Source: Copranaerobaculum intestinale (GTDB lineage Bacteria; Bacillota_I; Bacilli_A; Erysipelotrichales; Erysipelotrichaceae). Taken from it: DNA of 32,000 bases. The first letter of the stretch is position 1. Each line of letters begins with the position of its first letter. Below the pieces are notes generated by a model that saw nothing but the letters and a program-made list of their open reading frames with translations, was not told where the DNA came from and did no database searches. Below, piece by piece: positions 4,027 to 32,000 of the stretch. A program made the position numbers and the translations under genes. Where the stretch lies: positions 120,001 to 152,000 of the forward strand of contig NZ_WUUQ01000003.1 of NCBI RefSeq assembly GCF_009831105.1, given 5' to 3'.

Positions 4027-4069
4027 AGAAACTCCTTTCAATTTAAGAATGATTCTTATTCTTAAATAA

Positions 4070-4197: not shown

Positions 4198-4440
4198 ATG
4201 GGATGGATGAAAATGACGCTGGATCAAATAAAAATCGGAGAATCCGCAAAAATCACTGCTGTTTTTGGCGAAGAAGAGCTTCGCTGTCGGCTGCTGGATA
4301 TGGGACTGACCCCACGAACCGAAGTAATGGTGAGAAAAGCGGCACCGATGGGCGATCCCATTGAACTGCGGCTGCGCGGCTATGAGCTGACGCTGCGGCT
4401 GGAGGATGCACGCAATATCGAAGTGGAGGAACACGCATGA
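4198..4440 (+). CDS. feoA: Ferrous iron transport protein A (FeoA)
   Basis: Small SH3-like FeoA signature (LRCRLLDMGLTPRTEVMVRKAAPMGDPIEL). In-frame ATGs at 4207 and 4213 are alternative, possibly better, starts. The stop overlaps the feoB start (ATGA). Confidence 0.85.
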   Translation: MGWMKMTLDQIKIGESAKITAVFGEEELRCRLLDMGLTPRTEVMVRKAAPMGDPIELRLRGYELTLRLEDARNIEVEEHA

Positions 4441-7211: not shown

Positions 7212-9371
7212 ATGAAACAGTACAAAATAGCACTGGCGGGTAATCCAAACAGCGGTAAAACTACAATGTTCAACGATCTTACCGGAAGTGCTCAGTATGT
7301 CGGCAACTGGCCTGGTGTTACCGTTGAAAAGAAAGAGGGAAAGCTGAAAGGATACGGCGATGTTATTATTCAGGACTTGCCGGGAATTTATTCCCTGTCA
7401 CCGTATACGCTGGAGGAAATAGTCGCGCGTACGTATCTGATCAATGAAAAACCGGATGCGATCATCAATATCGTAGATGGTACGAATATCGAGCGTAACC
7501 TGTATTTGACTACGCATCTGTTAGAGCTGGGCATTCCGATGGTTGTAGCAGTCAACATGATGGACCTGGTGGAAAAGGGCAAGGATAAGATTAGTCTTGA
7601 TAAATTATCTGCGGAACTCGGCTGTGAAGTATACGGGATTTCCGCATTAAAAGGAAACGGCACAAAAGAGCTGGCAGCCCGCGTTGTTGAACTGATAAAG
7701 CGAAAAGAACAGGTTCAGCCGCTGCATGTATTTGCGGGAAGCATCGAGCATGCGATAGCGCATATTGAAGACGCGATCGCACAGAAGGCTGAACAGAAAA
7801 ATCTGCGATGGTATGCGATTAAGCTGTTTGAACGCGATAAGAAAGCAGTTTCGGCTTTGGATCTTCCAAACGATCTGTTTCATGATATTGAACAGTATAT
7901 CGTAGAGTGTGAGATGGAAATGGATGATGATGCGGAAAGCTTAATCACAGATCAGCGATATGACTACATCGGCAGGGTTGTGGCAAAGAGCGTGAAAAAG
8001 CATCGTGATCATGCCCTTTCAGTATCGGATAAAATCGACCGTTTTGTTACAAATCGTTTTCTGGCGCTGCCGATCTTCGCATTGGTTATGTTCCTTGTGT
8101 ATTATGTTTCTGTGACTACCGTTGGTACGGTGCTGACGGACTGGACCAATGATACACTGTTTGCTGAATGGATCATTCCGGGTGCACACAATCTGTTTAC
8201 TCAGCTTGGCACGGCACCGTGGCTGAGCGGACTGATTGTGGATGGTATTATTAACGGAGTCGGTGCCGTTTTGGGATTTGTGCCCCAGATGCTGGTGCTT
8301 TTCCTAATGCTGTCAGTCCTGGAGGACTGCGGCTACATGGCTCGTGTTGCTTTCATCATGGATCGAATTTTCCGAAAATTCGGCTTATCCGGAAAAAGCT
8401 TCATCCCGATGCTGATCGGTTCGGGATGTTCGGTTCCGGGGATCATGGCATCCCGTACGATTGAACAGGAGCATGACCGCCGTATGACGATCATGACGAC
8501 TTCTTTTATTCCATGCGGAGCGAAAATGCCGATTATCGCGCTCATTGCCGGCGCATTATTCGGCGGTGCATGGTGGGTCGCACCATCCGCTTATTTCATC
8601 GGTGTCGCAGCAGTAATAGTATCCGGCATCATTTTAAAGAAAACGAGAATGTTTTCCGGTGATCCTGCACCGTTTGTCATGGAACTTCCGGCCTACCATG
8701 TTCCAGCCGTAAGCAATGTCCTGCGCAGCATCTGGGAGCGAGGCTGGTCATTTATCCGCCGTGCCGGTACAGTCATACTGCTTTCTTCGATTGTACTGTG
8801 GTTCTTACAGGGCTTTGGCATGGTTCATGGATCCTTGCAGATGGTATCGGATAACAACAACAGCTTGCTGGCGGCAGTCGGACGCTTTATTGCTCCGCTC
8901 TTTGCCCCGCTGGGCTTTGGCACTTGGCAGGCATCTGTCGGTACCTTTACCGGTCTGATCGCAAAAGAGAATGTGGTTAGTACGCTTGGTGTGCTGTATG
9001 GCTTTGGTGAAGTTGCAGAAGACGGTCTGGAATACTGGACGATGTTTGCCCGTGATTTCACGGCACTGTCAGCATTCTCATTTATGATCTTCAATTTACT
9101 TTGTGCGCCTTGCTTCGCCGCTATGGGGGCGATCAAACGGGAAATGAACAATGCCCGCTGGACTTGGTTTGCGATCGGGTACCTCTGTGTCTTTGCTTAT
9201 ACGATTTCCCTGATCGTATTCCAAATCGGTTCCTTTGTGAACGGCGGTGAATTTACCGTTTTAACCGCTGCCGCAATTATTCTTTTGACAGCACTGATCT
9301 ATCTTTTGTTCCGCAGTCCTGCCAAAGTAAAAGCAGAGACACTTTCTCAAACGGCTGCCGCACATGAGTGA
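7212..9371 (+). CDS. feoB: Ferrous iron transporter FeoB (paralog)
   Basis: GNPNSGKTTMFN P-loop and DLPGIYSL, followed by a polytopic membrane domain. AAAGGAGG RBS. Confidence 0.95.
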   Translation: MKQYKIALAGNPNSGKTTMFNDLTGSAQYVGNWPGVTVEKKEGKLKGYGDVIIQDLPGIYSLSPYTLEEIVARTYLINEKPDAIINIVDGTNIERNLYLTTHLLELGIPMVVAVNMMDLVEKGKDKISLDKLSAELGCEVYGISALKGNGTKELAARVVELIKRKEQVQPLHVFAGSIEHAIAHIEDAIAQKAEQKNLRWYAIKLFERDKKAVSALDLPNDLFHDIEQYIVECEMEMDDDAESLITDQRYDYIGRVVAKSVKKHRDHALSVSDKIDRFVTNRFLALPIFALVMFLVYYVSVTTVGTVLTDWTNDTLFAEWIIPGAHNLFTQLGTAPWLSGLIVDGIINGVGAVLGFVPQMLVLFLMLSVLEDCGYMARVAFIMDRIFRKFGLSGKSFIPMLIGSGCSVPGIMASRTIEQEHDRRMTIMTTSFIPCGAKMPIIALIAGALFGGAWWVAPSAYFIGVAAVIVSGIILKKTRMFSGDPAPFVMELPAYHVPAVSNVLRSIWERGWSFIRRAGTVILLSSIVLWFLQGFGMVHGSLQMVSDNNNSLLAAVGRFIAPLFAPLGFGTWQASVGTFTGLIAKENVVSTLGVLYGFGEVAEDGLEYWTMFARDFTALSAFSFMIFNLLCAPCFAAMGAIKREMNNARWTWFAIGYLCVFAYTISLIVFQIGSFVNGGEFTVLTAAAIILLTALIYLLFRSPAKVKAETLSQTAAAHE

Positions 9372-12676: not shown

Positions 12677-13732
12677 TTAACGGGTAACCGTGTGCTTGCT
12701 TACGCCGACCGGATTATCCGGGTCATAATCGCGGGAGAGAGCGCATAGGCAGGCAAACATCTGCGCAAATACAGCGCACGCATAGACTGCTTCCAAACCG
12801 TCATACTGAGATGGAATCAAGACAGAGCTGTCACCCAGCTTCGCAATTTCCGGATCATTGGTAACAATTGTAGAATAAATATGCTTTTCTTCTTTTAAAC
12901 GCTCATGCAGGCCGATAATGCATTCGTTGGTCTGCTTATCAGCGATGAAGAAGATCGCCGGCACGAAGCGAAGCGACGTGGCAATCGGACCGTGACGATA
13001 ATCACTGGACGCATAGCTGCGGGCATCCAGATAGCTGGTTTCCTGAATTTTCAATTCTGCTTCCTGTGCCAAACCGTACAGTAAACCGCGTCCAAACAGC
13101 AGCATATGCTCAATGTTGCGGTAAACCGGAATGATCGCCCGTACCTGATCTTCCAGCTTCAAAGCTTCAGCCACAATATCGGGAAGCTTATCCAGCTGAC
13201 TGATCAATTCTGCCTTTCCGCTGATGTGGGCAGCTAACGCATTCAGGATCAACAGCTGTGTCATATAGGATTTAGCTGCGGTAATGCTGGTTTCTTTGCC
13301 GCATTCATTGTTGATGTAATATTTTCCGGCGGTGGTCATCAATGTATCACGTTCATTGGTTACACTGACACAAATTCCCCCCTGCTCATCGCAGCGCTTC
13401 ATTACTTCATAGACGTCCTGCGCTCCGCCTGACTGGGATACACCGATTACCAAAGCATTTGAGTAATCCACGTTTCCATTATAGCAGGTGATAACAGCAG
13501 GGGTAGCGATGCTGGCAATCATCCCGCAATGAGTCTCAAACAGATAGCGTGCCAACTGAGCTGCGTGATCACTGGAACCGCGAGCCGCAAAAACAACGGT
13601 CTTGATGCCTCGCGCTTTTACTTCAGCGGCGATTTCCTTGAAAATCGGGGTGTTGACCGATAAACAGCGGCGCATCATTTCCGGCTGTTCAAAAATCTCT
13701 TTCCAAAGCTTAGAATTGCTAGTTGAAATCAT
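12677..13732 (-). CDS. Double-SIS-domain sugar-phosphate isomerase/deaminase (GlmS isomerase-domain / AgaS-like)
   Basis: N-terminal WKEIFEQPE, then VVFAARGSSDHAA and IGVSQSGGAQDV SIS motifs. At 351 aa it has no glutaminase domain. Confidence 0.75.
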   Translation of the reverse strand: MISTSNSKLWKEIFEQPEMMRRCLSVNTPIFKEIAAEVKARGIKTVVFAARGSSDHAAQLARYLFETHCGMIASIATPAVITCYNGNVDYSNALVIGVSQSGGAQDVYEVMKRCDEQGGICVSVTNERDTLMTTAGKYYINNECGKETSITAAKSYMTQLLILNALAAHISGKAELISQLDKLPDIVAEALKLEDQVRAIIPVYRNIEHMLLFGRGLLYGLAQEAELKIQETSYLDARSYASSDYRHGPIATSLRFVPAIFFIADKQTNECIIGLHERLKEEKHIYSTIVTNDPEIAKLGDSSVLIPSQYDGLEAVYACAVFAQMFACLCALSRDYDPDNPVGVSKHTVTR

Positions 13733-13827
13733 AATTTCCCTCCTTGACTTTTACGAAATTATTTTATCACAGTTTGTGTTATAATGTTATTATATATTTA
13801 CAAATATTTTAAAAGGAGGTTTCATTT

Positions 13828-15045
13828 ATGCAGAAATTAGTAATTTCCCACCGTATCTATACTGAAAGGGGATGTTTGGACGGCGCTTTGCTCATTGAGG
13901 ATGACAAGATCAAGCAGATTTATACCCGAGAAAATATCCCGGCTGATTATTGCGGGACGATTGAGGATTACGGAAATGATCGGATCATTCCCGGCATCAT
14001 CGAGATGCATGTGCATGGTTTTAAAGGATGGAGCGCTTTTTCCTCCGATGTGGAAGAAATCAGAAAGCTTGGCAAAGCATTGACGGTCAGTGGAATCACG
14101 GGATTTACGCCGACCAATCATTACAAGCCGAATATTATGGAGAATGCCGCAGCCTTGGCAGATGCTTATGAAGGACCGCGTTACGGAGCCCGCAATCTTG
14201 GTATCCACATGGAAGGTCCCTTCATTTCCGCAAAAACTTTAGGGTCGGTCGAAGCTGATGATTTACATGAACCGGACTTGGATTTAATGAAAAAATTTTA
14301 TGAAGCATCCCGCGGTCATATCAATACGGTCACGATGGCACCAGAAGTGCCGGGCAATATGGAAATCTTAGATTGGCTTGTTGCCCATGGAGTGAATCCG
14401 TGCATCGGGCATTCCTACGCTACGTATGCAGAATGCAAAAAAGCAGTTGATCACGGTGCGGTTATCACCCAGAAAACCGGAAACTGTATGCGCCAGATTC
14501 ATCAGCGTGAGGTTGGCGTAGTTGGTGCCGCGATGCTGGATCGCCGCTTATATAATGAAATCAATTCCGATTTAGCACATTGCAGTAAGGAATTTCTGGA
14601 AATCCTATACCGCATGAAGGGCTATGAAAAACTATGCTTGGTAGCAGATAACGGCCGCATGAGCGGATTGGCATTTGGCCGCTATGATCTGAAGGAACGC
14701 GGCGGCAAGTATGAAGTGGGTAAGGATGGATTGCTGCACATTGCGGACGGTACGATCGACGGCAGTGCTTTAACGATCATGCACGGGATCCGCAACTGGG
14801 TGGAAGTAATCGGTATTCCCATGGAAGAAGCGGTTGTTATGGCTTCACTGAATCCGGCCAAGGTATGCCATGTTGATCATCAAAAAGGATCGATCAAAGA
14901 AGGCAAGGATGCGGATTATGTCGTTATTGACGATGCGTATCAGGTACTGCATACGGTAGTTGAGGGCACGATCGAATATGATTGTCAAAATGGTTTCAAC
15001 TATGATAATAAAGAATATGCCGACTGTTTGATGGAAGCATATTAA
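13828..15045 (+). CDS. N-acetylglucosamine-6-phosphate deacetylase-like amidohydrolase (NagA family)
   Basis: PGIIEMHVHGFKGW (HxH), GIHMEGPFIS and TGNCMRQIHQREVG resemble NagA signature segments. AAAGGAGG RBS. Confidence 0.75.
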   Translation: MQKLVISHRIYTERGCLDGALLIEDDKIKQIYTRENIPADYCGTIEDYGNDRIIPGIIEMHVHGFKGWSAFSSDVEEIRKLGKALTVSGITGFTPTNHYKPNIMENAAALADAYEGPRYGARNLGIHMEGPFISAKTLGSVEADDLHEPDLDLMKKFYEASRGHINTVTMAPEVPGNMEILDWLVAHGVNPCIGHSYATYAECKKAVDHGAVITQKTGNCMRQIHQREVGVVGAAMLDRRLYNEINSDLAHCSKEFLEILYRMKGYEKLCLVADNGRMSGLAFGRYDLKERGGKYEVGKDGLLHIADGTIDGSALTIMHGIRNWVEVIGIPMEEAVVMASLNPAKVCHVDHQKGSIKEGKDADYVVIDDAYQVLHTVVEGTIEYDCQNGFNYDNKEYADCLMEAY

Positions 15046-15164
15046 AAATTAAGAAAGAACCCAACCCAGATATTGTTAAAAAATGCACAATTATGATAGA
15101 ATCGTGTTATAATATCATAAAGTAAAGACAATGATACAAAGATACAAGGTTGGGAGGTATCGAC

Positions 15165-15923
15165 TTGACTACCGATTACATCAAATTAAATAAAATGACG
15201 GCAACCCCGCTTTATTATCAACTGAAAGAAAGCATCAAAGCCGCAGTCAGTGAAGGCATTTTAAAACCCAATGATAAATTGCCTACGGAAGAAGAGCTGT
15301 GTCTGGCCTTTAATATATCCCGTCCGGTCATCCGTCAGGCGTATTCGGAATTAATCAATGAAGGAATCATCACAAGATTTAAAGGCAAAGGCACATTTGT
15401 CCGCGAACAGGAAGTGAAGGGAAGATTCTTCCGAGAACTCAGCAATTTTCAGCATGAAATGCACCGCCTTGGACTTACGCCAAGCACCAAGGTTCTGTCT
15501 TTAGAAACCATTTCGTATAATCGCAGGGTGTACGATGAAGTATTCCATTTAGAAAAAGGCGAGCCGGTTCTGCATATTCGCAGACTGCGTTATGGAAATG
15601 ACATACCAATCGTTTTGGTTGAAACCTTTGTCCCGCTGAAATATTTTCCGGGATTAGAAAAAGCGGATTTCACCAGTACCTCACTGTATGATCTGTTTGA
15701 GAAAAATTACAGTACCTATGTTGCCAAAGCAGAACGTACGATCGAAGCTCGCATCATTGAAAATAAGGATGCCGATCTGTTGGAAGTCAAACGTCACAGT
15801 GCCATGCATTTTGTAAAGACCTATGCATATGATCTCAGTGAGCGTATGGTTGAGTATTCAATAGCAGTTTACCCGGGCGAACGCAATAAGTTTGATGTCG
15901 TCATCAACCGCAGCAGCAACTGA
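15165..15923 (+). CDS. GntR-family (HutC/UTRA-type) transcriptional regulator
   Basis: PLYYQLKESIKAAV...LPTEEELCLAFNISRPVIRQAYSELINEGII is a winged-HTH followed by a UTRA-sized C-domain. The TTG at 15165 follows GGGAGG by 7 nt; the track start at 15150 is also a TTG. Confidence 0.8.
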   Translation: MTTDYIKLNKMTATPLYYQLKESIKAAVSEGILKPNDKLPTEEELCLAFNISRPVIRQAYSELINEGIITRFKGKGTFVREQEVKGRFFRELSNFQHEMHRLGLTPSTKVLSLETISYNRRVYDEVFHLEKGEPVLHIRRLRYGNDIPIVLVETFVPLKYFPGLEKADFTSTSLYDLFEKNYSTYVAKAERTIEARIIENKDADLLEVKRHSAMHFVKTYAYDLSERMVEYSIAVYPGERNKFDVVINRSSN

Positions 15924-19144: not shown

Positions 19145-19274
19145 AAGAAGCACCTCGTTATATTGTAATGATATAATAACAAATTAAATGACTGCCTTCA
19201 AGCCTTAGTTTTCCTATACAAAACTTATTTATTATATTATAATATTGTCATAATGTTTTTTGAGGAGGTGGATT

Positions 19275-20060
19275 ATGCAGTCATTTAATTTTCATACCCA
19301 TACTAAGCGCTGCGGCCATGCCACCGGGGAAGAAGAAGCCTATGTAAAGGCGGCCATTGAAGCCGGCTACAAGGTGCTCGGCTTCAGTGATCATGCCCCT
19401 TATAAACAGCGTTACAGTTGGGATGAACGAATGCATGAAGACGAATATCCGCTGTATTGTAAGGAAGTACGGCGTTTACAGAAAGTCTATAAGGATCAGA
19501 TTCAGATATATCTGGGACTGGAAATTGAATATTATGAAGAACAGCTGGAAGAATTAAAAGCATACCGAGAAGAATTGGATTTTTGTATTCTCGGCCAGCA
19601 TTCCTATACAGTCATGGGTCACAATTACTTTGTGGATTGTGATGACAGGTGGGTACTTGTATATGCAAATCAAATCCGCAAGGCTTGTGAAATGGGTTTC
19701 GTGGATATCATCGCCCATCCCGATTTGTTTATGATCAGCCGCAGTACCTGGTCAAAAGCCTGTGAGGAGGCAGCCTGCATCATTTGTGAGACGAGCAATC
19801 GTTTTCAAATTCCTTTAGAATTGAATCTTGGCGGCTTGCGTTACGGTAAGAAACAAAAGGGTAAGGAGCTGCGCTATGTATATCCTTATCGGCCTTTATG
19901 GGAAATCGTAGCGGAATACGGCTGTCCGGTTATTTATGGTTTGGATGCTCACTCGCCTGATTATGTGGGCAGAAAAGATATATTTAAGATTGCAGATGAA
20001 GTAGTAAAAGATTTGCCTTTAAACTTTTTAAAAGAGTTTAAACCGATGGGATGTAAATAG
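19275..20060 (+). CDS. PHP-domain phosphatase (histidinol-phosphatase HisJ family)
   Basis: FHTHTKRCGHA and GFSDHAP metal motifs. GAGGAGGTG RBS before ATG 19275. Confidence 0.75.
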   Translation: MQSFNFHTHTKRCGHATGEEEAYVKAAIEAGYKVLGFSDHAPYKQRYSWDERMHEDEYPLYCKEVRRLQKVYKDQIQIYLGLEIEYYEEQLEELKAYREELDFCILGQHSYTVMGHNYFVDCDDRWVLVYANQIRKACEMGFVDIIAHPDLFMISRSTWSKACEEAACIICETSNRFQIPLELNLGGLRYGKKQKGKELRYVYPYRPLWEIVAEYGCPVIYGLDAHSPDYVGRKDIFKIADEVVKDLPLNFLKEFKPMGCK

Positions 20061-20070
20061 GAGGAAAATT

Positions 20071-20724
20071 ATGATCAAAGCAGTAGTATTTGACATGGAT
20101 GGGGTACTTGTCGACACCGAAGGGTTTTATCGGGATCGGATGATTCAAGTTTTTGAGCATTATCAGATCCCTTATACTGTAGCGGCGTGTAATGAATTGG
20201 CTGGGGGATCACAAAAGCATTATGATGAATTTTTGGCAAAAATGTTAGATGGAATTATGGATCCCAAAGAGTTTCATGATCGTTACGAAGCGACGTTTCG
20301 CGATGATCCGGTTGATTATGAGAAAATTATGTATCCGGGAGTTCATGAGTGTATTCGGGATTTAAAAGCTGGGGGCTACCGGGTAGCGCTTGCCTCTTCT
20401 TCCAAGATGGTGAATATTTTGGAAGTTCTGAAAGCGATCCAGCTGGAGGATGAATTTGAGTTTCTGCTGAGTGGAGAAATGTTTCATGAATCTAAGCCGA
20501 ATCCGGAGATTTATCTGAAAGCGGCGGATATGCTGGGACTAAAGCCGCAGGAATGCCTGGCGATCGAAGACAGTACGTATGGTCTTCGCTCAGCATTCGA
20601 TGCTGGATTACATGTGTTAGCGAAACGTGATGATCGTTTCGGCTACGATCAGGATATTGCGGAAATGAAATTTGATGACTTTCAGGATATACTCACATAT
20701 CTGAGATCAAAGAGGGAAGCATGA
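20071..20724 (+). CDS. HAD-family hydrolase (beta-phosphoglucomutase-like subfamily)
   Basis: AVVFDMDGVLVDTE motif I, ALASSS motif II, KPNPEIYL and IEDSTYGLRSAFDAG motifs III/IV. Confidence 0.8.
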   Translation: MIKAVVFDMDGVLVDTEGFYRDRMIQVFEHYQIPYTVAACNELAGGSQKHYDEFLAKMLDGIMDPKEFHDRYEATFRDDPVDYEKIMYPGVHECIRDLKAGGYRVALASSSKMVNILEVLKAIQLEDEFEFLLSGEMFHESKPNPEIYLKAADMLGLKPQECLAIEDSTYGLRSAFDAGLHVLAKRDDRFGYDQDIAEMKFDDFQDILTYLRSKREA

Positions 20725-21617
20725 TGCATCAATATCGCGGTGTTGCCTATATTTTTCTCACCGCATTTCTGTGGAGCCTGGGTGGCCTGCTGTATCGCAT
20801 GGTCAACTGGAATGCCACCTTGATTGCCGGATTTACTTCACTGATCGCTTTTGTGATCATGGGGATCTGGCGCCGCAGCTTTAAAGTAAAAGTCACCAAA
20901 TTTGTTATTCTGACAGCGGTTTGTTCCTGTTTAACCAATTTGACCTTTGTTTATGCCAATCAGCTGACGACGGCGGCGAATGCGATCGTGCTTCAGTATA
21001 TATCTCCCGTTTTCTGTTTGCTGTATGCATGCTTATATCATCGCCAAAAACCGACTGCCAAGCAGATAGCCGTCATATTTGTAGCACTCAGCGGCCTAGT
21101 GCTGTTTTTCTTTGGTAAACTGGACAGCGGACAAATGTTGGGAAATCTGTTTGCGATAGTATCCGGTATTATCTTCGGTGCGGTATTCTTTCTGAATACC
21201 CTGCCGCAAGCAAAACCAGCCGACAGTTCCATGCTGGCTCAGTTATTTGCGGCGGTAATGGCTATTCCGTTCCTGTCTCAGATTCCTTCAGTTAATACCT
21301 CGTCGTTGACCGGTATTTTGCTGATCGGAGTGCTGCAGATGGGAATTTCCAGCATTGCCTTTGCGAAAGGTATTCAAGAAACGGAATCGGTTACCGCAAA
21401 TTTGATCTGTCTGTTGGAAACGATCATGAGCCCCCTTTGGGTGTTCATCGCCTATGGAGAACGCCCCGGTGCCTATGCTGTTTTGGGAGCAGTTATTCTA
21501 ATGAGTGCCGTCGTATTAAATATTATATGGGAAGGCAAGGAGGAAGCAAAAGAAGCGCTTGCGGAAAAAGAGCTTGCCCGGGAAGTACTGGCTTATGAAA
21601 AAGAAGGGGGATCTTAA
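20721..21617 (+). CDS. EamA/DMT-family transporter
   Basis: 298-aa protein with about 10 hydrophobic spans arranged as two similar halves. It overlaps the HAD gene's stop. Confidence 0.7.
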   Translation: MMHQYRGVAYIFLTAFLWSLGGLLYRMVNWNATLIAGFTSLIAFVIMGIWRRSFKVKVTKFVILTAVCSCLTNLTFVYANQLTTAANAIVLQYISPVFCLLYACLYHRQKPTAKQIAVIFVALSGLVLFFFGKLDSGQMLGNLFAIVSGIIFGAVFFLNTLPQAKPADSSMLAQLFAAVMAIPFLSQIPSVNTSSLTGILLIGVLQMGISSIAFAKGIQETESVTANLICLLETIMSPLWVFIAYGERPGAYAVLGAVILMSAVVLNIIWEGKEEAKEALAEKELAREVLAYEKEGGS

Positions 21618-21674: not shown

Positions 21675-22868
21675 ATGCAGGAATATTTGATCATATCCAA
21701 GCGAATACTTACGCCTAATGGCTTTCTGGCAGGAGCCCTGCACATTCAAAATGGAATTATCGTCAATATATATCAGGAGGAGGATGAGCTGCCTGATCTG
21801 CCGATGTATGGCTATCGCACCCAGATGGTATTGCCCGGTATTATCGATCTGCACACGCATGGCCTGCTGGGCTGGGCGGCAGCTTCCTTTGATGCGGAAA
21901 AAATTGAAAAGCTCGCTCAGGCAGAATGCTGCGTCGGTGTGACGGCCTTTCAGCCATCCATTGCAGATTTGGAAACAATGGAGGATTATGATCGGTGCCT
22001 GCATGCCATTGGTAAAGCAAATCCGATTAGCGGGGCGAGGATTCTAGGAGCGCATATGGAAGGCCCGTATTTTCATCCCGATCATAAGGGCTGTGACCTG
22101 GCGCGTAATATCACGCCGTCATTAGATGCGATGAAAGCGGCCATAGAAGCATCTGATCATCATCTGACGTATGTTGCGCTGGCTCCGGAATTACAAAATA
22201 TGGATACGATTATACCATATTTATTAAAAGCGCAGATACGAGTGGGAATCGGCCACAGCGATGCGACTTTTGCTCAAGCCTGGCAGGCCATTGAGATGGG
22301 CGCGAACATCGGTATCCATACCGGTAATGCGATGCGGGCAATTCATCAGCGGGAAATCGGTATCAGCGGAGCCCTTCTGCTGCATCCAGACGCTTATTGT
22401 GAGTTGATTTGTGATTTTCACCATCTGGCCCCTGAATACATTCAGCTGGTTTTGAAAATGAAGGGAAAAGAGCGGGTTTTGATGATGAGTGACGCGACGG
22501 AAATGTCCGGCTTAAACGAGGGTATTTACCGTATCCGCGGCCGTAAGATGATCGTGAAAGAGGGAAAGGTGCAGCTGGAAGACGGTACGATTGCCGGCAG
22601 CAGCAGTTATGTGCTTGCGGGAATGAAAAACCTGGTGCAGAAATTGAATCTGCCGATTGAGGATGTATCATATATGGCATCTATGAGCCCTGCGAACGTA
22701 ATGGGGATCCAGGCGCATAAAGGGTCGTTGGAAGTCGGCAAGGATGCAGATATCATGGTTCTGGATGATGACTTTAACTGTATGGTGACCTATGTGGAGG
22801 GAACCTGTCGCTATCAGGGAGAACCGTTGTCGGATTATACGAATCATACCTTTTTTAACCAAGCATAA
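21675..22868 (+). CDS. NagA-family deacetylase-like amidohydrolase (paralog of 13828-15045)
   Basis: PGIIDLHTHGLLGW, GAHMEGPYF and TGNAMRAIHQREIG parallel the motifs of the first copy. Confidence 0.75.
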   Translation: MQEYLIISKRILTPNGFLAGALHIQNGIIVNIYQEEDELPDLPMYGYRTQMVLPGIIDLHTHGLLGWAAASFDAEKIEKLAQAECCVGVTAFQPSIADLETMEDYDRCLHAIGKANPISGARILGAHMEGPYFHPDHKGCDLARNITPSLDAMKAAIEASDHHLTYVALAPELQNMDTIIPYLLKAQIRVGIGHSDATFAQAWQAIEMGANIGIHTGNAMRAIHQREIGISGALLLHPDAYCELICDFHHLAPEYIQLVLKMKGKERVLMMSDATEMSGLNEGIYRIRGRKMIVKEGKVQLEDGTIAGSSSYVLAGMKNLVQKLNLPIEDVSYMASMSPANVMGIQAHKGSLEVGKDADIMVLDDDFNCMVTYVEGTCRYQGEPLSDYTNHTFFNQA

Positions 22869-22892
22869 AAAATCACGTAATAAAAAATATAT

Positions 22893-22927
22893 AAAAAAAG
22901 CATTCGATGTGGGATCGGATGCTTTTT
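22893..22927. terminator. Bidirectional terminator between convergent genes
   Basis: AAAGCATTCGAT / ATCGGATGCTTT form a 12-bp stem (one G-U pair) with a 5-nt loop, flanked by an A-run and a T-run. Confidence 0.7.
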
Positions 22928-22941
22928 CATGTAATCAAAGA

Positions 22942-24045
22942 TTAGCATTCTGTATCTACATAGTTTTCTGTTTTGCAGGCAACTTTTTCTTTGAAGATAT
23001 TGTACAGCGGATGCTTTTCCCATTTATGTGTATCTTCCGTAACTTTATAAGAAATGATCTGGAAGAACGGCAGTGAGTATAATGGTGCGATCAATGGATT
23101 GGTGTCGAATGGCAGCCGGATCGCATGATCATCGTCAACCGTTGGATCATTGGTGATGATGTAAGCTTCATCGGTAATTGTACGTACAGCGTGATAAATT
23201 TCACTGACGCGTTTACTGCAGTGATCCATACCATCCACGAAGAACAGTGTGTAGTTTGGAGTAAGCTGCAGGTTTGGACCATGCAGGAATTCTTCCATTT
23301 CATAAGCGACAGATGGAATCTGAACCGTCTCACCGATTTTCAGGGCACCTTCCAGTGCGGTACCATAGCTGGCACCGAATCCGCATACATAAGCGCTGGT
23401 CATGGAAGTCATCGCCTTGTAATTTGTTTCGTAAAATTTCAAGGTTTCCTCGGTAACGATCTTATGTGCATCAGCAGTCTTTTTGATTTCTGCTTTTAAG
23501 GAATCTGCCTGTTCTGCATCCATGATGCCTTTCACTAATGCGGCTTCAATCGAGAACAGCATTAAGAATTCCGCTAACGTAGTAACACCCTTTGTCACAT
23601 AGCCAACGGTTTCAATGCCAACCCCATATTCAACCAATTCATCCGCATGATCTTTGAAATCACTGTCCAGATTTCCGGTCAGGCCGATTGCTTTTTTACC
23701 CATTGCCTTCAGCTTTTCAAGCGCTTCAATTGAATTCGTAGAATATCCGCTCTGTGAGATAACAAAACCGAAGTCATCATCACCCATATTGTTTTCATAG
23801 TTTGTGAAGGTATATGGGGTAACGATTTTCACTTCACAGTTCAGATACTCACGCATAAATGCACGGGCACAATTAGAACCGTTGAAGGAAGATCCGGATG
23901 CGATAATCCAGATTGTTTTATAATCCTTTTCCGTGAAGTCTTTCACCAGGGCTGCGGTCAGTTCCTTAGAACGATCTACGTTGTGGGCGATAGCCGGTGC
24001 AGACTCTAATACGTAATCCATCATGGTCATTTTCTTTTCTGTCAT
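22942..24045 (-). CDS. Double-SIS-domain sugar-phosphate isomerase/deglycase (AgaS/GfrF-like)
   Basis: IWIIASGSSFNGS and FVISQSGYSTNS SIS motifs. AAGGAGG lies 5 nt upstream of ATG 24045. Confidence 0.75.
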   Translation of the reverse strand: MTEKKMTMMDYVLESAPAIAHNVDRSKELTAALVKDFTEKDYKTIWIIASGSSFNGSNCARAFMREYLNCEVKIVTPYTFTNYENNMGDDDFGFVISQSGYSTNSIEALEKLKAMGKKAIGLTGNLDSDFKDHADELVEYGVGIETVGYVTKGVTTLAEFLMLFSIEAALVKGIMDAEQADSLKAEIKKTADAHKIVTEETLKFYETNYKAMTSMTSAYVCGFGASYGTALEGALKIGETVQIPSVAYEMEEFLHGPNLQLTPNYTLFFVDGMDHCSKRVSEIYHAVRTITDEAYIITNDPTVDDDHAIRLPFDTNPLIAPLYSLPFFQIISYKVTEDTHKWEKHPLYNIFKEKVACKTENYVDTEC

Positions 24046-24825: not shown

Positions 24826-24918
24826 AAATTCGGGTTTTAAGCTCGTTTGTAAGAAAGGGATACAGACAGCTTTTAACATATTGATCGTTTAATACGATCA
24901 GAAAAGGAGGATTTTTAG

Positions 24919-25719
24919 ATGGAGATTACGATGGAGATTACATTGATTCAAGGTATTCTGCTTGCGATCGTTGCATTCATCTGTGGAATCGACCAGTGCT
25001 GGGAAGCATTCTACTGGTTCCGTCCGATGGTTGTTGCGTTCTTTGCAGGTATCGCACTCGGCGACATGAAGCTTGGTATCCAGGCTGGTGCCATTGCCGA
25101 ACTGTCTTATCTGGGTCTGCTGACTGTTGGTGGTACCGTTCCACCTGATCCACTGATGGCTGGTATGATGACAGTTGTTATCGCATACACAACTGGCAAA
25201 GGTGTGGAGACTGCATTAGGTCTTTCCCTGCCATTCGCACTGTTAGCTCAGTGGTTAGGTATTTTCTTCAATACCGTATACGCTGGTTTCATGCGTCCGT
25301 TGGAAGCTGCTGCAAAAGCTGCTGACACAAAGAAATTCAGAAACATCGTTTATCTGTCAGTTGCTATTAAAGCAGGTGCAGTTGCACTGCTGACTTTCTT
25401 AGCAGCTTATGGTTTACAGAAACCAATTCAGGAATTCGTAAATGCATTCCCGAAAGAATTAATTCACGGCTTTGAAATTGCCGGTAACCTGTTACCTGCA
25501 GTTGGTTTAGGCCTGTTATTGATGATCATGCTGAAAAAGGAGAATGCTCCTTACCTGTTCATCGGTTTCTTAATTGCTACATTTACTTCTGTTGGCAACG
25601 TTCTGCCAATCGCTATTGCGGCAATCGCTATTGCATACATCGATTATATGTATGATCAGAAAATGGCAAAAGCGGCTAGCGTAAGTATGGAAGGAGGAGC
25701 TGACGATGACGGTATCTAG
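24919..25719 (+). CDS. PTS mannose-family EIIC component
   Basis: 266-aa polytopic protein with a typical Man-IIC N-terminus (IQGILLAIVAFICGID). GGAGG lies 8 nt upstream. Confidence 0.85.
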   Translation: MEITMEITLIQGILLAIVAFICGIDQCWEAFYWFRPMVVAFFAGIALGDMKLGIQAGAIAELSYLGLLTVGGTVPPDPLMAGMMTVVIAYTTGKGVETALGLSLPFALLAQWLGIFFNTVYAGFMRPLEAAAKAADTKKFRNIVYLSVAIKAGAVALLTFLAAYGLQKPIQEFVNAFPKELIHGFEIAGNLLPAVGLGLLLMIMLKKENAPYLFIGFLIATFTSVGNVLPIAIAAIAIAYIDYMYDQKMAKAASVSMEGGADDDGI

Positions 25720-26497
25720 AAATAAACTGACAAAACAAGATATTAACAAGATGAGTTTATACTCTGTTATTGAACAGTCATGCTTTAGTTTTGAACGTAT
25801 GCAGGCTGCAGGTTTCACACTTTCTATGGTTCCTACATTCAAAAAAATCTACGGTGATCAGAAAGAAGAAATCGCTGCTGCTATGATGAATAACATGGAC
25901 TTCATCAACACTGAACCGCATATGGCTACTTTCTTGATGGGATTGATCGTATCTCTGGAAGAAGCTGGTGAAGACCGCGAAATGATCAAGGGTATTAAAA
26001 CTGGTCTGTTCGGACCTTTAGCTGGACTTGGAGATGCAATCTTCTGGTTCACACTGCTGCCGATTTCTGCAGCGATCTGCTGTTCCATTGCCAAAGATGG
26101 TTCCGTTCTTGGACCTCTGCTTTATATTGGCATTTGGTTTGTTGCGGCAATTTCTCGTATCTGGTTTGGACGTCTGGGCTACACATTAGGTGTTAACGCA
26201 GTATCTACTATTTCTGAGAATGCGAACGCTATCACCAAAGCAGCTGGTATTCTGGGTGTAATGGTTGTAGGTGGATTGATTCCTTCTTACGTATCACTTG
26301 AATTTGCCAAAAAGCTGACAGTTGCCGGCGGAGTTAACGTTCAGGGAGTATTTGATGGAATTCTGCCTAACGTTCTGCCTTTAGGATTTGTGTTCCTGCT
26401 GTATTGGCTGTTCAAGAAAAAGAACGCTAACGTTATCGTTATCATTCTGGGAATTATTGTATTCTCAATCGGTATGTCCTACCTCGGCTGGATGTAA
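25706..26497 (+). CDS. PTS mannose-family EIID component
   Basis: FERMQAAGF, NTEPHMATF and GPLAGLGDAIFW are typical of Man-family IID. It overlaps IIC by 14 nt. Confidence 0.9.
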   Translation: MTVSRNKLTKQDINKMSLYSVIEQSCFSFERMQAAGFTLSMVPTFKKIYGDQKEEIAAAMMNNMDFINTEPHMATFLMGLIVSLEEAGEDREMIKGIKTGLFGPLAGLGDAIFWFTLLPISAAICCSIAKDGSVLGPLLYIGIWFVAAISRIWFGRLGYTLGVNAVSTISENANAITKAAGILGVMVVGGLIPSYVSLEFAKKLTVAGGVNVQGVFDGILPNVLPLGFVFLLYWLFKKKNANVIVIILGIIVFSIGMSYLGWM

Positions 26498-27585: not shown

Positions 27586-28440
27586 ATGAAAATTCTTGGA
27601 TTAGGTGATAATGTAGTTGATCGCTATCTGAATCTCAAGGTGATGTTTCCGGGCGGCAATGCAGTCAATGTAGCTGCGCACAGTGCCAAATTGGGAGCTG
27701 AAGCTGGTTATCTGGGACGTATCGGTAATGATCAGGAGGGCCGAATGTTATTGAATGCTCTTCAAGATCTGCATATCGACCTTTCCCATTGTGAGCTTGT
27801 AGACGGCGGTACTACCAAGCGTTGTGATGTGAATGTATATGAGGGTGAACGATCTTTTGTCGGGGTTGATCTAGGAACCGCCTGGCCGGGAGCGCCGACT
27901 TTAAAGGATGATGATATCGCTTATATAAATTCTTTTGATCTTATTCACAGCAGCTGTAACGCGAAAATGCCGGAGCAAATGATGAAATTGAAAGACTGTC
28001 CTGGTCTTGTTTCGTTTGATTTCGGAGAAAAGGAAAAATACCGTACGGATGAATATATGGATATGGTCTGCCCATATACGAATCTGGCGCTGTGCTCCTG
28101 TGACGGCATGTCTTTGGAAGCGCGCAAAGCGCTGGCAAAAAGAATGCTTGAAAAAGGAATTGATGTTGTGCTGCTTACCAGCGGCAATGTCGGACCGCTT
28201 GCATATAATGGCACGGTCTATGTTGAAGGCAAGGTTGAATATGTAAAGCCAATTGATACAATGGGTGCAGGTGATTCTTTTCTAGCAGCCTTCATCGTAT
28301 CGCTGCTGAAACAGGGTTGGAAGAAATCTCATATACCAAGCGAGTCAATGCTTCAGAAAGCCTTGCATCAAGGCGCACACTACGCCGCACAGAACTGTCT
28401 GATTGAAGGCGGCTTTGGATATAAGAAATTATATATTTAG
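27586..28440 (+). CDS. frlD: PfkB-family kinase, fructoselysine 6-kinase-like
   Basis: LGDNVVDRY...FPGGNAVNVA and IDTMGAGDSFLAAF closely parallel E. coli FrlD segments as I recall them. The last ~40 codons lie in repeat copy A, and the final three codons plus the stop (LYI*) are AT-rich insert-derived sequence. Confidence 0.7.
   Translation: MKILGLGDNVVDRYLNLKVMFPGGNAVNVAAHSAKLGAEAGYLGRIGNDQEGRMLLNALQDLHIDLSHCELVDGGTTKRCDVNVYEGERSFVGVDLGTAWPGAPTLKDDDIAYINSFDLIHSSCNAKMPEQMMKLKDCPGLVSFDFGEKEKYRTDEYMDMVCPYTNLALCSCDGMSLEARKALAKRMLEKGIDVVLLTSGNVGPLAYNGTVYVEGKVEYVKPIDTMGAGDSFLAAFIVSLLKQGWKKSHIPSESMLQKALHQGAHYAAQNCLIEGGFGYKKLYI
28309..28429 (+). repeat. Direct repeat copy A (3' end of the intact frlD-like gene)
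   Basis: Aligns without gaps to 31226-31346 at a constant offset of 2917 nt, with 7 mismatches by hand count. Confidence 0.9.
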
Positions 28441-28456
28441 CAAAGGAATCCCCTTC

Positions 28457-28485
28457 TTGACAATATTTTCCAATTTAACTATAAT
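28457..28485 (+). promoter_or_regulatory. Consensus sigma-A promoter at the left end of the islet
   Basis: TTGACA (28457-28462), exactly 17 nt, TATAAT (28480-28485). Confidence 0.75.
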
Positions 28486-28531
28486 GAAGTTATAAGGGAA
28501 TAACGGAATTATTACTAGGGGGGTGATTCCA

Positions 28532-28561
28532 ATGGTTACATTTATTTTCAATAGAACATAA
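28532..28561 (+). CDS. Candidate 9-codon leader peptide (MVTFIFNRT)
   Basis: AGGGGGGTGA ends 5 nt upstream of the ATG. The TAA stop (28559-28561) lies inside the 5' arm of the following terminator. Confidence 0.35.
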   Translation: MVTFIFNRT

Positions 28562-28596
28562 AAGAATAGTTATCTATCTTTATGTTCTATTTTTTT
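28551..28596 (+). terminator. Intrinsic terminator / attenuator in the islet leader
   Basis: ATAGAACATAAA (28551-28562) pairs perfectly with TTTATGTTCTAT (28579-28590), followed by T6. Confidence 0.7.
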
Positions 28597-28623
28597 ATTT
28601 ATTGACCATAAGGAGGATAAAAT

Positions 28624-29052
28624 ATGTTAATTAATAAATTGATATTGGCTACGTCAGTTTTATTTCTTTCATCTTCACCTGTAAGCTTATATACTAGTGA
28701 TGAGTGGGAAATTATGCCACGAGCAGCTGTTGGAAGTCAAAAGGCATATAGTGGAACTGCTAAAATGAAAACAATAGGTAATACTTTGCAAACAGTTAAC
28801 TATAATGTAACCGTATATATGTCGTGGGATGATTCAACAGGTCGTGTTTTAGGTGCTGATTTTGGAGGACATAAATGTACTGTACCTGCATCCGGGGTTA
28901 AATTTACATGTACACTAGAAACCGTTTCTATTACAAAAGCAACATATTATGCCAAATATACATATAAAGCTGTTTATACACTTAATGGGGTAAAAAGAGA
29001 TTATGGAAGTCCTAATTTCACTATCACAAGATACAGTCCAGGTCAAAGTTAA
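28624..29052 (+). CDS. Secreted hypothetical protein (142 aa, signal peptide, beta-rich, two Cys)
   Basis: AAGGAGG RBS. The N-terminal MLINKLILATSVLFLSSSPVSL is signal-peptide-like. I recognise no family. Confidence 0.7.
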   Translation: MLINKLILATSVLFLSSSPVSLYTSDEWEIMPRAAVGSQKAYSGTAKMKTIGNTLQTVNYNVTVYMSWDDSTGRVLGADFGGHKCTVPASGVKFTCTLETVSITKATYYAKYTYKAVYTLNGVKRDYGSPNFTITRYSPGQS

Positions 29053-29058
29053 TCTAGA

Positions 29059-30831
29059 ATGAAAAAAAAGTACCTAGTTATTCCTTTATTTTCATTCATA
29101 TTAATGATTTTAATATATAATCTTACTTCATTCATGAATTTTAATTTTTATTATACATTTTCTGATGTATTGCATATTGAAACATATCAATCAATGAACA
29201 CAATTGATGTTATTAATAGTAATGAAATGGAATTCGATAAATTCATTGTATCTTTGATTGAGTATGCAAACAAAAATAATATAACTTATGTTCATGATAA
29301 TAATAGTAGTAAAAATGGAACAGAAATTATTAATCATTATATTTATTCAAATAATCAAAAAGTACAAAAATTATTGGATATCAAATCAAAAGATTTCAAA
29401 TATAATTTCAGCTTTAGTACAAAACCAAGTAAAGTTACAGATCGTTTATTAGAATTTGGAAAGCCCTATATTGATGGAAACATTAATTTAATTATTGGCA
29501 TTAAAAATTTTGCTTATTTAAAAAACTCTAATTTTTCAAACTTCCGTTTGACAGTTCTTTGTGCAACGCAGAAAAAATTTAATAGTTTCTCAAAATGGCT
29601 TGAAAATAGTAAAGGTTTAGAAACTAGAAAAGTCGAAGTTCATTCTGAATGGCTTCAGGAGTTAAAAAGTAAGAAAAATTTAATGATTAATCTAATTTTA
29701 CTTTTAATAATTTTATTGTTTGTTTTTGATATTAAATTAATATTAAAGGAGGTAGATAAAAAGAATATTTTAAAAGAAAATATTATAATACTTTCTTTAT
29801 CGTTTAGTATCTTTGTATTTTTATTCATAGGATTATCAAGTATACATAATAATATCTTTTTAAAACAATACATGTATTATATATTACCCAGAGTATTTAT
29901 GATTTATTTTACTTATTTGATAGTATCCTTCATAATATTTAGTTTTTTTGAAAAAAACACATCTAATAAGCTTAATTTGTATATTTACACAAAGCTTATT
30001 TATTCTATTATTTTAATGGTTTCTTTGAATAAAGTATATTATCTAACTGAATACTATTTGAAACAAGGTTATAATATCTATGTTAATCAAGAAGAAATAA
30101 ATTCTAAATATTTGATTAAAAATCTTGATCAGATAAACAAAGAATTATTTGAGGATTTTTTACCAGAAATAATATATTATGATTTTCTAAAATTAAATCT
30201 AAATGGAGTTGAGTATTCTTTTATAATAGTGAATAATGAATATATAAGTAAACACTTAAATTTTACACTCAATTTAACTGATTATGATTATATTATACCA
30301 AAAATCTTCAAATCAAGTTTAAAAAAAGAATTTTCCAATTACAAAGTTTTGTGGACAAAACAAGATTATAAATTTTTGAATTATAATATATATGATGTTA
30401 ATCAAGGCTTTGACAATGTAATAATTAGCAATATTGAACATAATAAGCAATTTGATTATGTTGATAGTGGGTGTATATTTATTCCTGAGCATAAAATACA
30501 AAGAATTAAAAATGTGTTACATGATCATAATATAGAGACTTATAATCTTATTAAGTATAAAGGAAAATCAAATTATGAATTAAGTATAGGAAAAGTGAAT
30601 ATTTTAATTAGTATTTATCTATTTGGCATGTTATTTTTGATCACGAATTCGTTGTGTCGAAATTTTATAGTTGAAATTAAAAGAAGCTATTTTTCCTATA
30701 TAGGTATGGAAATAATGTTTTTTGGATTTTTTTCATATATACTTAATATTCATTTGATACTATCATCAGCGTATTTTTTGGTTAATTGTACGTTCTTAAC
30801 CGTTGAGAAAATAAGAAAGAAGGATCTTTAA
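29059..30831 (+). CDS. Polytopic membrane protein, likely of the bacteriocin-associated integral membrane (DUF1430 / FtsX-like) family
   Basis: 590 aa with extremely AT-rich codons. Hydrophobic spans are arranged 1 + 4 + 2-3, separated by two Asn/Lys/Tyr-rich hydrophilic domains of about 180 aa. This architecture is typical of the membrane protein in lactococcin-972-type loci. There is no clear SD; the gene starts 6 nt after the upstream stop. Confidence 0.55.
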   Translation: MKKKYLVIPLFSFILMILIYNLTSFMNFNFYYTFSDVLHIETYQSMNTIDVINSNEMEFDKFIVSLIEYANKNNITYVHDNNSSKNGTEIINHYIYSNNQKVQKLLDIKSKDFKYNFSFSTKPSKVTDRLLEFGKPYIDGNINLIIGIKNFAYLKNSNFSNFRLTVLCATQKKFNSFSKWLENSKGLETRKVEVHSEWLQELKSKKNLMINLILLLIILLFVFDIKLILKEVDKKNILKENIIILSLSFSIFVFLFIGLSSIHNNIFLKQYMYYILPRVFMIYFTYLIVSFIIFSFFEKNTSNKLNLYIYTKLIYSIILMVSLNKVYYLTEYYLKQGYNIYVNQEEINSKYLIKNLDQINKELFEDFLPEIIYYDFLKLNLNGVEYSFIIVNNEYISKHLNFTLNLTDYDYIIPKIFKSSLKKEFSNYKVLWTKQDYKFLNYNIYDVNQGFDNVIISNIEHNKQFDYVDSGCIFIPEHKIQRIKNVLHDHNIETYNLIKYKGKSNYELSIGKVNILISIYLFGMLFLITNSLCRNFIVEIKRSYFSYIGMEIMFFGFFSYILNIHLILSSAYFLVNCTFLTVEKIRKKDL

Positions 30832-31160
30832 TGTTAAAAAAAAGTTTAAGTATTTTTACTATAATGTTAGTAGCTACTATAACGACTTGTTTTGCGTATC
30901 AACAATCAGCTGATGTGAAATGTGGAAATACAATGCCTAATAATTATGGTGTTGCATCAGCATATCATCCTGTTAGAACAACAGCAGCCACGCGAGTTAC
31001 ATCTGGAAATTTAGCTAAAGAAGGTCATAAATATTGTGCGAGAGTAGAAGATGCAAACTCTGCTGCTGTGCAGTGTACAACTAGAAGAAATACCTCTGCT
31101 GTTGCACAAAAGCCTTTAAGCCTCACAATCCCACATACGCATTCTTGGACATATGAGTAG
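30831..31160 (+). CDS. Secreted small protein, possible lactococcin-972-family bacteriocin precursor
   Basis: Signal peptide MLKKSLSIFTIMLVATITTCFA. NNYGVASAYHPVRTTAATRV resembles the HGYGVSSAYSNYHHGSKTHSATVV core of lactococcin 972 as I recall it. The start overlaps the upstream stop (TAATG), and AAGAAGGA lies upstream. Confidence 0.45.
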   Translation: MLKKSLSIFTIMLVATITTCFAYQQSADVKCGNTMPNNYGVASAYHPVRTTAATRVTSGNLAKEGHKYCARVEDANSAAVQCTTRRNTSAVAQKPLSLTIPHTHSWTYE

Positions 31161-31225
31161 ATTATAAATTAATAGCAATGTCGCAAAATATATCAATTAT
31201 GATGTATATAAATTTTGTTTTATTA

Positions 31226-31354
31226 AAACAGAGTTGGAGGAAATCTCATATACCAAGCGAGTCAATGCTTCGGGAAGCCTTGCGTCAAGGCGCACACTAC
31301 GCAGCACAGAACTGTCTGATTGAAGGCGGCTTTGGATACAAGAAATCGTTTTAA
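31226..31354 (+). pseudogene. Orphan 3' fragment of the frlD-like kinase gene (direct repeat copy B, original gene tail)
   Basis: In-frame translation ...WRKSHIPSESMLREALRQGAHYAAQNCLIEGGFGYKKSF* parallels the C-terminus of the intact gene. It has no start codon or N-terminal part. Confidence 0.85.
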
Positions 31355-31356
31355 AA

Positions 31357-31379
31357 TCGGCTTCTAAAGCCGATTTTTT
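31357..31379 (+). terminator. Rho-independent terminator (native frlD terminator)
   Basis: TCGGCTT / AAGCCGA stem with a short loop, followed by T6. Confidence 0.75.
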
Positions 31380-31435: not shown

Positions 31436-32000
31436 ATGGAAGCTGTCTATCAGGAACTCACGATCAATCGTAATTCTGCAATTCCGCTCTATTTTCAATT
31501 TAAACAATTTATGATTGATAAAATTGAAAAGGGCGAGCTGAAAGCCGGAGATTTAGTACCAACCGAAGAAGAACTTTGTAAACTGTACCACATCAGTCGG
31601 CCAACCATCCGACAGGCCTTTGGTGAACTGGTGAATGAGGGGTACATGACGCGAAAACGGGCGTTGGGAACTTTTATATCTCATCCTAAGCTCAGTTCAA
31701 AATTTTTGAATCGCATCGCTCGTTTTGATGAAGAAATGGAAACCATAGGCGTTCAGCCCATTACTTTGGTGAAGAAGCTGGAAGTATGTGATGCACCGGA
31801 TGAGGTGGATATCAAATTGCATTTGCACGGTGATCAAGCGATCAATCTGAATCGTCTGCGGCTTACGGAAAAGGGAGTGCCGTTTGTCTACGAGGAAACG
31901 TATATGCCATATCATCTGTTTCGCGGTATGGAGCATCTTGATTATACTGAGGATTCCATGTATCTGAATATGGAAGCACACGGGCATAAGATAGGAAGGA
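31436..32000 (+). CDS. GntR-family (HutC/UTRA) regulator, FrlR-like, 3' end beyond the window
   Basis: Hand translation MEAVYQELTINRNSAIPLYFQLKQFMIDKIEKGELKAGDLVPTEEELCKLYHISRPTIRQAFGELVNEGYM... The frame is open to the window end, so it is not in the ORF track. AAAGGAG and TGATATAAT lie upstream. Confidence 0.8.
   Translation, partial: MEAVYQELTINRNSAIPLYFQFKQFMIDKIEKGELKAGDLVPTEEELCKLYHISRPTIRQAFGELVNEGYMTRKRALGTFISHPKLSSKFLNRIARFDEEMETIGVQPITLVKKLEVCDAPDEVDIKLHLHGDQAINLNRLRLTEKGVPFVYEETYMPYHLFRGMEHLDYTEDSMYLNMEAHGHKIGR

Follow-up and report, generated by a model that had tools for sequence, protein, structure and literature searches.

A strain-variable operon at the 3' end of a sugar kinase gene in Copranaerobaculum intestinale resembles a solitary, integrase-less remnant of a tail-replacing mobile element

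The cryptic prophage e14 of Escherichia coli K-12 lies within the 3' end of icd, to which it supplies a diverged replacement tail, whilst the native tail now lies beyond the prophage as the pseudogene fragment icdC: by our measurement e14 starts 165 nt before the icd stop codon, the displaced icdC fragment is 165 nt long, the two tails differ at 12 positions (92.7% identity) and their homology begins abruptly at the annotated end of the prophage. Phage 21 also integrates at the 3' end of icd, and integrases of this type perform the exchange at the 5' edge of the homology. A further group of relevance is that of the cis-mobilisable elements (CIMEs), which are remnants decayed from integrative and conjugative elements (ICEs) or integrative and mobilisable elements (IMEs) that are flanked by attachment (att) sites, streptococcal examples being those at the fda, rpsI and rpmG 3' ends (PMC7563491; PMC12084326); 'classical' CIMEs are 1.2-13 kb in size, are devoid of recombination and conjugation genes and are found at the 3' ends of protein genes (PMC7563491). 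Here we analyse a locus of comparable geometry from Copranaerobaculum intestinale DONG20-135, a member of the Erysipelotrichaceae from the human gut: within a 32-kb stretch of its DNA (the window, the coordinates of which are used throughout), a three-gene cassette of very low GC content follows the 3' end of an FrlD-like PfkB sugar kinase gene and separates it from a second copy of its own tail (kinase and cargo genes: MXQ74134-74137; Table 1).

The cassette is bracketed by a single direct repeat of 121 nt (copy 1, 28309-28429; copy 2, 31226-31346; offsets counted from +0 at 28309 and 31226, respectively), with the two copies aligning without gaps at a spacing of 2917 and with 94% identity (94.2%). 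Direct counting gives seven differences, at offsets +6, +13, +46, +48, +58, +77 and +113, with longest perfect runs of 32 and 35 nt. A preliminary description of this stretch had listed a 121-bp repeat with seven mismatches at an offset of 2917, and both a repeat search and the direct count agree with it; the homology of the two segments, which it had marked as a point to be checked, is real. The homology begins abruptly at offset 0, with CTGCTG and TTATTA just upstream of the two copies and AAACAG as its first bases, and it ends at +120, 8 nt short of the native stop codon. As had been stated earlier, the translations show that the intact kinase ends in ...GGFGYKKLYI*, whereas the orphan tail, which is in frame, ends in ...GGFGYKKSF* at 31354. 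Directly after this orphan tail lies the only terminator-like site between 27400 and 31600 (31353-31377), in agreement with the proposal that the insert has no terminator of its own at its right end and would use the displaced native one.

The composition of the insert is foreign: 28430-31225 has a GC content of 25.2% compared to 43.7% (standard deviation 1.7, minimum 40.3) in equal-sized windows elsewhere in the window, and the G+C at third codon positions (GC3) of the three cargo genes is 0.17-0.19 against 0.38-0.42 in host genes. The local G+C counts first given for this contrast (7 in 29101-29160 against 26 in 27601-27660) proved exact on recounting. Independent scaffolds from ENA cross both junctions, with L034 spanning the left junction (1 mismatch in 7579 nt) and L017 and L021 spanning the right junction (100% identical), and hence the arrangement is not an assembly artefact. 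A transposon or insertion sequence was considered and rejected: there is no transposase, the insert ends show no terminal inverted repeats (their best alignment scores 12 against a shuffle mean of 11.1), and the repeat is 121 nt long and non-identical. A 19-nt near-palindrome at 31214-31232 (TTTGTTTTA-T-TAAAACAGA) has as its right arm the first bases of the homology; as a candidate recombinase site it is not significant, with ~10 comparable palindromes present in the 2.8-kb insert.

Table 1. Features of the kinase-cassette locus in window coordinates.
Feature	Position	Strand	Evidence
FrlD-like PfkB sugar kinase gene (MXQ74134), intact, 284 aa	27586..28440	+	Open reading frame (ORF); PF00294, E 3e-29
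Proposed build-up of the kinase gene: native body, with the last ~40 codons and LYI* derived from the element	27586..28440	+	
Repeat copy 1 (attL-like), kinase tail apparently brought by the element	28309..28429	+	Five variants absent from 18 native alleles
AT-rich surrogate kinase end (...K-LYI*) in place of the native SF*	28430..28440	+	Sequence, ORF, alignment with empty alleles
Cassette promoter, TTGACA-17-TATAAT, 12/12 consensus, only perfect site in the region	28457..28485	+	
Leader with mini-ORF and hairpin, possible attenuator or terminator	28492..28623	+	
ORF1, 142 aa, signal-peptide-like N-terminus, GC3 0.17	28624..29052	+	
ORF2, 590 aa, polytopic membrane protein	29059..30831	+	Hydropathy, AlphaFold2 (AF2) secondary structure
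ORF3, 109 aa, predicted signal-peptide protein	30831..31160	+	
Right-end spacer of the insert, 15% GC, including the greater part of a 19-nt near-palindrome next to where the homology starts	31161..31225	+	
Repeat copy 2 (attR-like) plus native SF*, apparently the displaced native kinase tail	31226..31354	+	Equals haplotype B from +7
Native kinase terminator, now the sole terminator 3' of the cassette	31353..31377	+	Empty alleles have it at this place after KKSF* too
GntR/UTRA regulator gene, truncated at the window end; follows the kinase downstream in the native arrangement	31436..32000	+	PF00392 and PF07702

The target gene had been labelled frlD. Membership of the PfkB family and a genomic context of a mannose-type phosphotransferase system (PTS-Man), SIS and GntR genes were found; however, the score against the FrlD equivalog NF007321 (151.6 bits) falls below the cut-off of 247, so that going by sequence the name is only approximate. 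Clustering at 90% identity places the kinase amongst 14 sequences: only the window version has 284 aa and the LYI tail, with the other full-length members having 283 aa and ending in KKSF. On contigs fetched for four of these variants, the alternative allelic state was found in 18 conspecific metagenome loci (L011-L016 and L022-L033), comprising four haplotypes (A-D) that are ~99% identical to the window and all of which exhibit an empty site; this count is a lower bound (at least 18 contigs). In these empty alleles the kinase, ending in KKSF*, is followed by the terminator and, 81 nt on, by the GntR gene in all loci reaching far enough downstream. Two sister species (L035-L038, 82-84% amino acid identity) and Massilicoli timonensis (L001, 58% identity) share the empty arrangement, and thus the empty state is ancestral; eight more distant relatives showed no other insertion at the kinase 3' end. 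The preliminary description had predicted just such an empty site, with a single KKSF* tail, the terminator and the GntR gene, had held that the insert separates the kinase from this regulator, and had named a filled site in all relatives as the finding that would speak against an insertion: the prediction and the separation are both borne out, and the opposite of the last was observed.

The filled allele was recovered from the isolate and from at least six metagenome samples (L010, L017-L021 and L034), and in the filled alleles found the cassette was seen at the kinase 3' end only, in no other context. The cassette is a strain-variable islet within Copranaerobaculum intestinale. Filled alleles are nearly clonal, with two cassette haplotypes that are 5 single-nucleotide polymorphisms apart. 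The second haplotype (L018-L020, from three metagenomes) differs at window positions 29673, 29989, 30138, 30269 and 31190; two of these differences are synonymous, two are proline substitutions in ORF2 (T311P and L404P) and one is intergenic, while ORF1 and ORF3 are invariant between the haplotypes.

The availability of both allelic states allows the origin of each repeat copy to be read base by base, for which an alignment was made of both copies, native haplotypes A-D and both sister species. In copy 2 only +5 (G) and +6 (A) depart from native haplotype B, with which it agrees in full from +7 to about +310. Copy 1, by comparison, exhibits five states that occur in no native allele (+5G, +48A, +58A, +77C and +113T); at +5, +58 and +113 its state is that of both sister species, which identifies these three as old polymorphisms rather than new mutations. 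The 920 nt directly upstream of copy 1 are free of window-unique variants, and the flanking background of 14 window-unique single-nucleotide variants (SNVs) in 6.7 kb leads to an expectation of ~0.25 in 121 nt against the 5 observed (Poisson P ~7e-6). Judged from these alignments, the tail that the kinase has at present came with the cassette and is a genuine one, if more basal, and the native tail is the one that has been displaced; the earlier suggestion that the element supplies a replacement gene end is thus upheld by the five non-native states of copy 1 and the match of copy 2 to haplotype B. A single reciprocal exchange would most simply account for both junctions, with its simplest placement at offsets 0 to +12: copy 1 would then be native before and foreign after the exchange, and copy 2 would be cassette before and haplotype B after. 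Our first reading, a mid-repeat crossover at +47, has been demoted: it is possible but less parsimonious, because +13G and +46G turned out to be natural variation and copy 2 matches haplotype B, and it needs both the chance sharing of haplotype B's private +13G by the element and a three-way mosaic recipient. By analogy with the exchanges at icd, a position at the edge of the homology would favour site-specific recombination.

The explanation that we prefer, with moderate confidence, is that a horizontally acquired 2.8-kb operon was integrated in the kinase 3' end by a tail-replacing exchange and persists there as a CIME-like remnant. The incoming DNA would have been a circular element of ~2917 bp, or a larger one that was later trimmed, and would have carried a diverged copy of the last ~40 kinase codons beside very AT-rich cargo; such an element would be chimeric, given that the kinase tail it bore has a host-like composition and the cargo does not. 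One reciprocal exchange would have joined the tail of the element to the kinase body, leaving the gene intact with an LYI* end, and the same exchange would have moved the native tail and terminator 2.9 kb downstream. This exchange may have occurred within the first ~13 nt of homology ('AAACAG') and been catalysed by a site-specific integrase as at icd; as there is no recombinase in the cassette, the enzyme would have been supplied in trans or since been lost. Several observations weigh against this explanation. Domain searches reveal no integrase, transposase or recombinase in the ORFs of the cassette or, across the window, in any with at least 100 aa, and these, together with the shuffle test, agree with the initial remark that no integrase, transposase or terminal inverted repeats are present. 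Neither the tail nor the cargo could be traced to a parental ICE, IME or phage in searches of plasmids, phages, IMG/VR and JGI metagenomes. More than one point of exchange is compatible with the alignments, as +13, +21 and +46 are polymorphic in native alleles, and +5G is present in both copies and in no native allele, which demands one extra event under any model. No excision product or circle was seen, with the Logan unitigs L010 and L018 breaking inside the repeat and fitting either a circle or the integrated form. Finally, the e14 homology runs through the stop codon, whereas that of the cassette stops 8 nt short of it and LYI* replaces SF*.

The absence of a recombinase would be readily understood if a non-replicating circle with a captured 121-nt kinase tail had been integrated by RecA in a Campbell-type event, with loop-out and re-entry in other strains, and we regard this as a possible, if clearly less probable, course of events. 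No missing gene is then required, RecA could act on a repeat of 121 nt at 94% that includes perfectly matched stretches of 32 and 35 nt, the species is mosaic at a scale of 100-500 nt, and the polymorphic sites allow an exchange near +47. However, the simplest exchange, in the first ~13 nt, has next to no homology to one side of it and would represent ~11% of events if these were uniformly distributed; furthermore, the origin of a circle with a precisely trimmed tail beside a promoter is left unexplained, and no empty allele bears the foreign tail variants that are expected from internal loop-out. The mosaic flanks and the near-clonality of the filled alleles would also be in keeping with import from a divergent donor lineage that already held the cassette at its kinase 3' end, through a homologous left anchor combined with an illegitimate or microhomology-mediated (AAACAG) right join, or through a double crossover with the right one in copy 2. 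The mismatches between the copies would in that case represent donor and recipient alleles, and not attP and attB, and the tail in copy 1 does look like a genuine basal allele, with 3 of its 5 private variants in the sister-species state. Nevertheless, we hold such an import to be unlikely: that the imported tract should start within 18 nt of the point at which the cassette rejoins the gene is an unexplained coincidence here, while it comes free with a single exchange, and it is these coinciding breakpoints that make import the weaker rival. In addition, no donor lineage or other cassette context appears amongst ~15 billion proteins, and import merely shifts the origin of the duplication to another lineage. 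Direct repeats of 121 nt could in principle also recombine out the segment between them, which would make the cassette ancestral and the empty alleles its deletion products. This explanation, like that of an assembly chimera, is highly improbable: the two sister species (82-84% amino acid identity) and Massilicoli (58%) are empty, the insert stands out as foreign by its GC3 (0.18 against 0.40), relatives lack homologues of the cargo, both junctions were recovered in independent assemblies, and the opposite is seen of what a deletion would entail, namely a cassette in basal relatives and deletion scars in the empty alleles.

Returning to a tail-replacing integration, comparison with the described systems shows both agreement and clear differences. 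As with e14 at icd, the insertion lies within a gene 3' end, a diverged replacement tail is supplied, the original tail ends up beyond the element and the homology has an abrupt start; the tails measure 165 nt with 12 mismatches for e14 and 121 nt with 7 for the cassette. However, e14 has 15 kb and encodes an integrase and an excisionase (intE and xisE), whereas the cassette has 2.8 kb and encodes neither. With CIMEs the cassette shares att-like direct repeats at a gene 3' end, the absence of recombination and conjugation genes, the presence of cargo and, at 2.9 kb, the size. It differs from them in that no cognate ICE or IME at the site and no sequence relationship to any ICE or IME emerged from the databases searched, and in that it stands alone rather than in tandem with another element. 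Typical att repeats are much shorter than 121 nt. Searches for relatives of the element returned nothing: by blastn the cassette has no matches in plasmids and phages, the exact tail pattern was not found in IMG/VR and JGI metagenomes, ORF1 and ORF2 have no matches in metagenome and viral contigs, and none of the fetched loci holds a cognate element at the kinase 3' end. As to the question raised earlier of whether the cassette occurs elsewhere or beside a recombinase, in these searches it was never encountered outside the kinase 3' end. By analogy, then, the description as a solitary CIME-like remnant fits best, with descent from an ICE or IME being putative.

With regard to the cargo, the cassette promoter is followed by a leader in which a mini-ORF of 9 codons (28532-28561, MVTFIFNRT*) has AGGGGGG just upstream. 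An AU-rich hairpin (28550-28591), which is followed by a U-run and lies just before the ribosome-binding site of ORF1, includes the stop codon of this mini-ORF in its 5' arm; the predicted fold has -30.5 kcal/mol (z -3.2), with 0/200 shuffles as stable. Going by this folding model, the leader looks like a translation-sensitive attenuator. There was no match to Rfam families in the leader or insert, and no tRNA was detected in the insert. The ribosome-binding site of ORF1 is AAGGAGG, ORF2 starts 6 nt past the ORF1 stop codon and the start of ORF3 overlaps the stop codon of ORF2; the layout of the sequence indicates that the cargo forms a single operon, which would end at the displaced native terminator. 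The GC3 of 0.17-0.19 that is common to the three ORFs points to one foreign, very AT-rich source.

The proteins encoded by this operon are orphans, for which no homologue was found amongst ~15 billion proteins. In ORF2, hydropathy and AF2 predict an N-terminal transmembrane segment, two loops of ~170 aa and transmembrane clusters at residues ~200-340 and 515-582, and the length of the frame at 21% GC is highly improbable by chance (P of no stop ~2e-27). For ORF2 the sole match, amongst 5.8e9 clusters as well as in a full phmmer scan of 1.84e9 representatives, is the protein itself, ORF3 finds only itself in a protein database search, and ORF1 has a single-membered 90% cluster and came up empty in narrower searches; none of the three gave a significant match in Pfam, NCBIfam, PHROGs, PADLOC or the PDB. 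Assignment of ORF2 to DUF1430, FtsX or another family was rejected, with no match at E values up to 1-10 in Pfam, NCBIfam, PHROGs and PADLOC, and tblastn of ORF2 against plasmids gave compositional matches only, from AT-rich Borrelia plasmids. Paralogy of ORF1 and ORF3 was likewise rejected, as no alignment between them was found. The single-sequence AF2 models have mean confidence scores (pLDDT) of 41 for ORF2 and 50 for ORF3, which is too poor for fold comparison. Residues 71-94 of ORF1 (28834-28905) resemble the repeat unit of actinohivin, a ricin-B-like lectin module, with a whole-sequence E of 7e-4; this stretch is present in a single copy and no individual stretch passes alone.

Small, putatively secreted proteins beside a large membrane protein bring bacteriocin loci to mind. 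In lactococcin 972 (Lcn972) clusters, a Sec-dependent small bacteriocin is accompanied by a putative immunity protein of the DUF1430 family with 7 transmembrane segments and by an ABC ATPase (PMC12345188). The cassette is reminiscent of these in that its AT-rich accessory operon, from a gut Firmicute, couples the translation of small signal-peptide proteins to that of a large polytopic membrane protein, yet it differs in having no ABC ATPase gene and in that ORF2 has no DUF1430/TIGR01654 match at E values up to 10. ORF3 as a lactococcin 972 itself (TIGR01653) was rejected: its score of 16.7 bits compares to a cut-off of 32.1 and is lost without the signal peptide, and there is no PDB match. 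That the cargo acts as a secreted factor or toxin (bacteriocin) with a membrane partner for immunity or export is only a guess, suggested by the architecture of the operon. The more far-reaching idea, that the cassette is a self-sufficient, recombinase-free unit which uses the kinase tail as a homing address and is spread by host recombination, with a new secreted toxin or bacteriocin and its immunity or export protein as cargo, appears to us rather doubtful.

Further features of the window lie apart from the cassette. At the start of the PTS IIC gene, a 12-nt insertion (24918-24929, GATGGAGATTAC) gives IIC 266 aa instead of 262; the window and the filled scaffold L034 have it, and all four empty haplotypes lack it. 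In the PTS IID gene, six window-unique SNVs fall within 72 nt (26301-26372) against a background of ~2 per kb, and this cluster probably came in with a short recombination tract that has no connection with the cassette. A sugar-amine-type module at 12677-15923 consists of SIS (minus strand), amidohydrolase and GntR/UTRA genes, and a similar one at 21675-24045, made up of amidohydrolase and SIS genes (minus strand), is followed by the PTS-Man/SIS/kinase/GntR operon. The window also encodes a LigT-like 2',5'-RNA-ligase domain fused to GIY-YIG (1224-2027), an Fe-only hydrogenase with C-terminal rubrerythrin- and rubredoxin-like domains (2347-4041, minus strand) and a pair of FeoB genes (4437-6440 and 7212-9371). 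Beyond the window, some 8 kb downstream of the site, the empty locus L011 encodes a LytTR response regulator and a HATPase_c_5 histidine kinase (19146-20852); two-component pairs of this type often control bacteriocin loci in Firmicutes.

The structure is of a known type, with the geometry of e14 at icd and the status of a CIME-like element: a fairly ordinary mobile-element remnant, which does not overturn current understanding. It is set apart by its readable allelic history and by a completely orphan operon. As a clean natural case of a gene-tail-replacing insertion, with both allelic states sampled in the human gut, it illustrates that population data are sufficient to delimit solitary remnants devoid of an integrase; single CIMEs escape the surveys of integrated elements, by the account of such surveys themselves (PMC7563491). 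For Copranaerobaculum intestinale, an understudied gut species of the Erysipelotrichaceae, the orphan operon represents a reasonable candidate for a factor in competition between strains.

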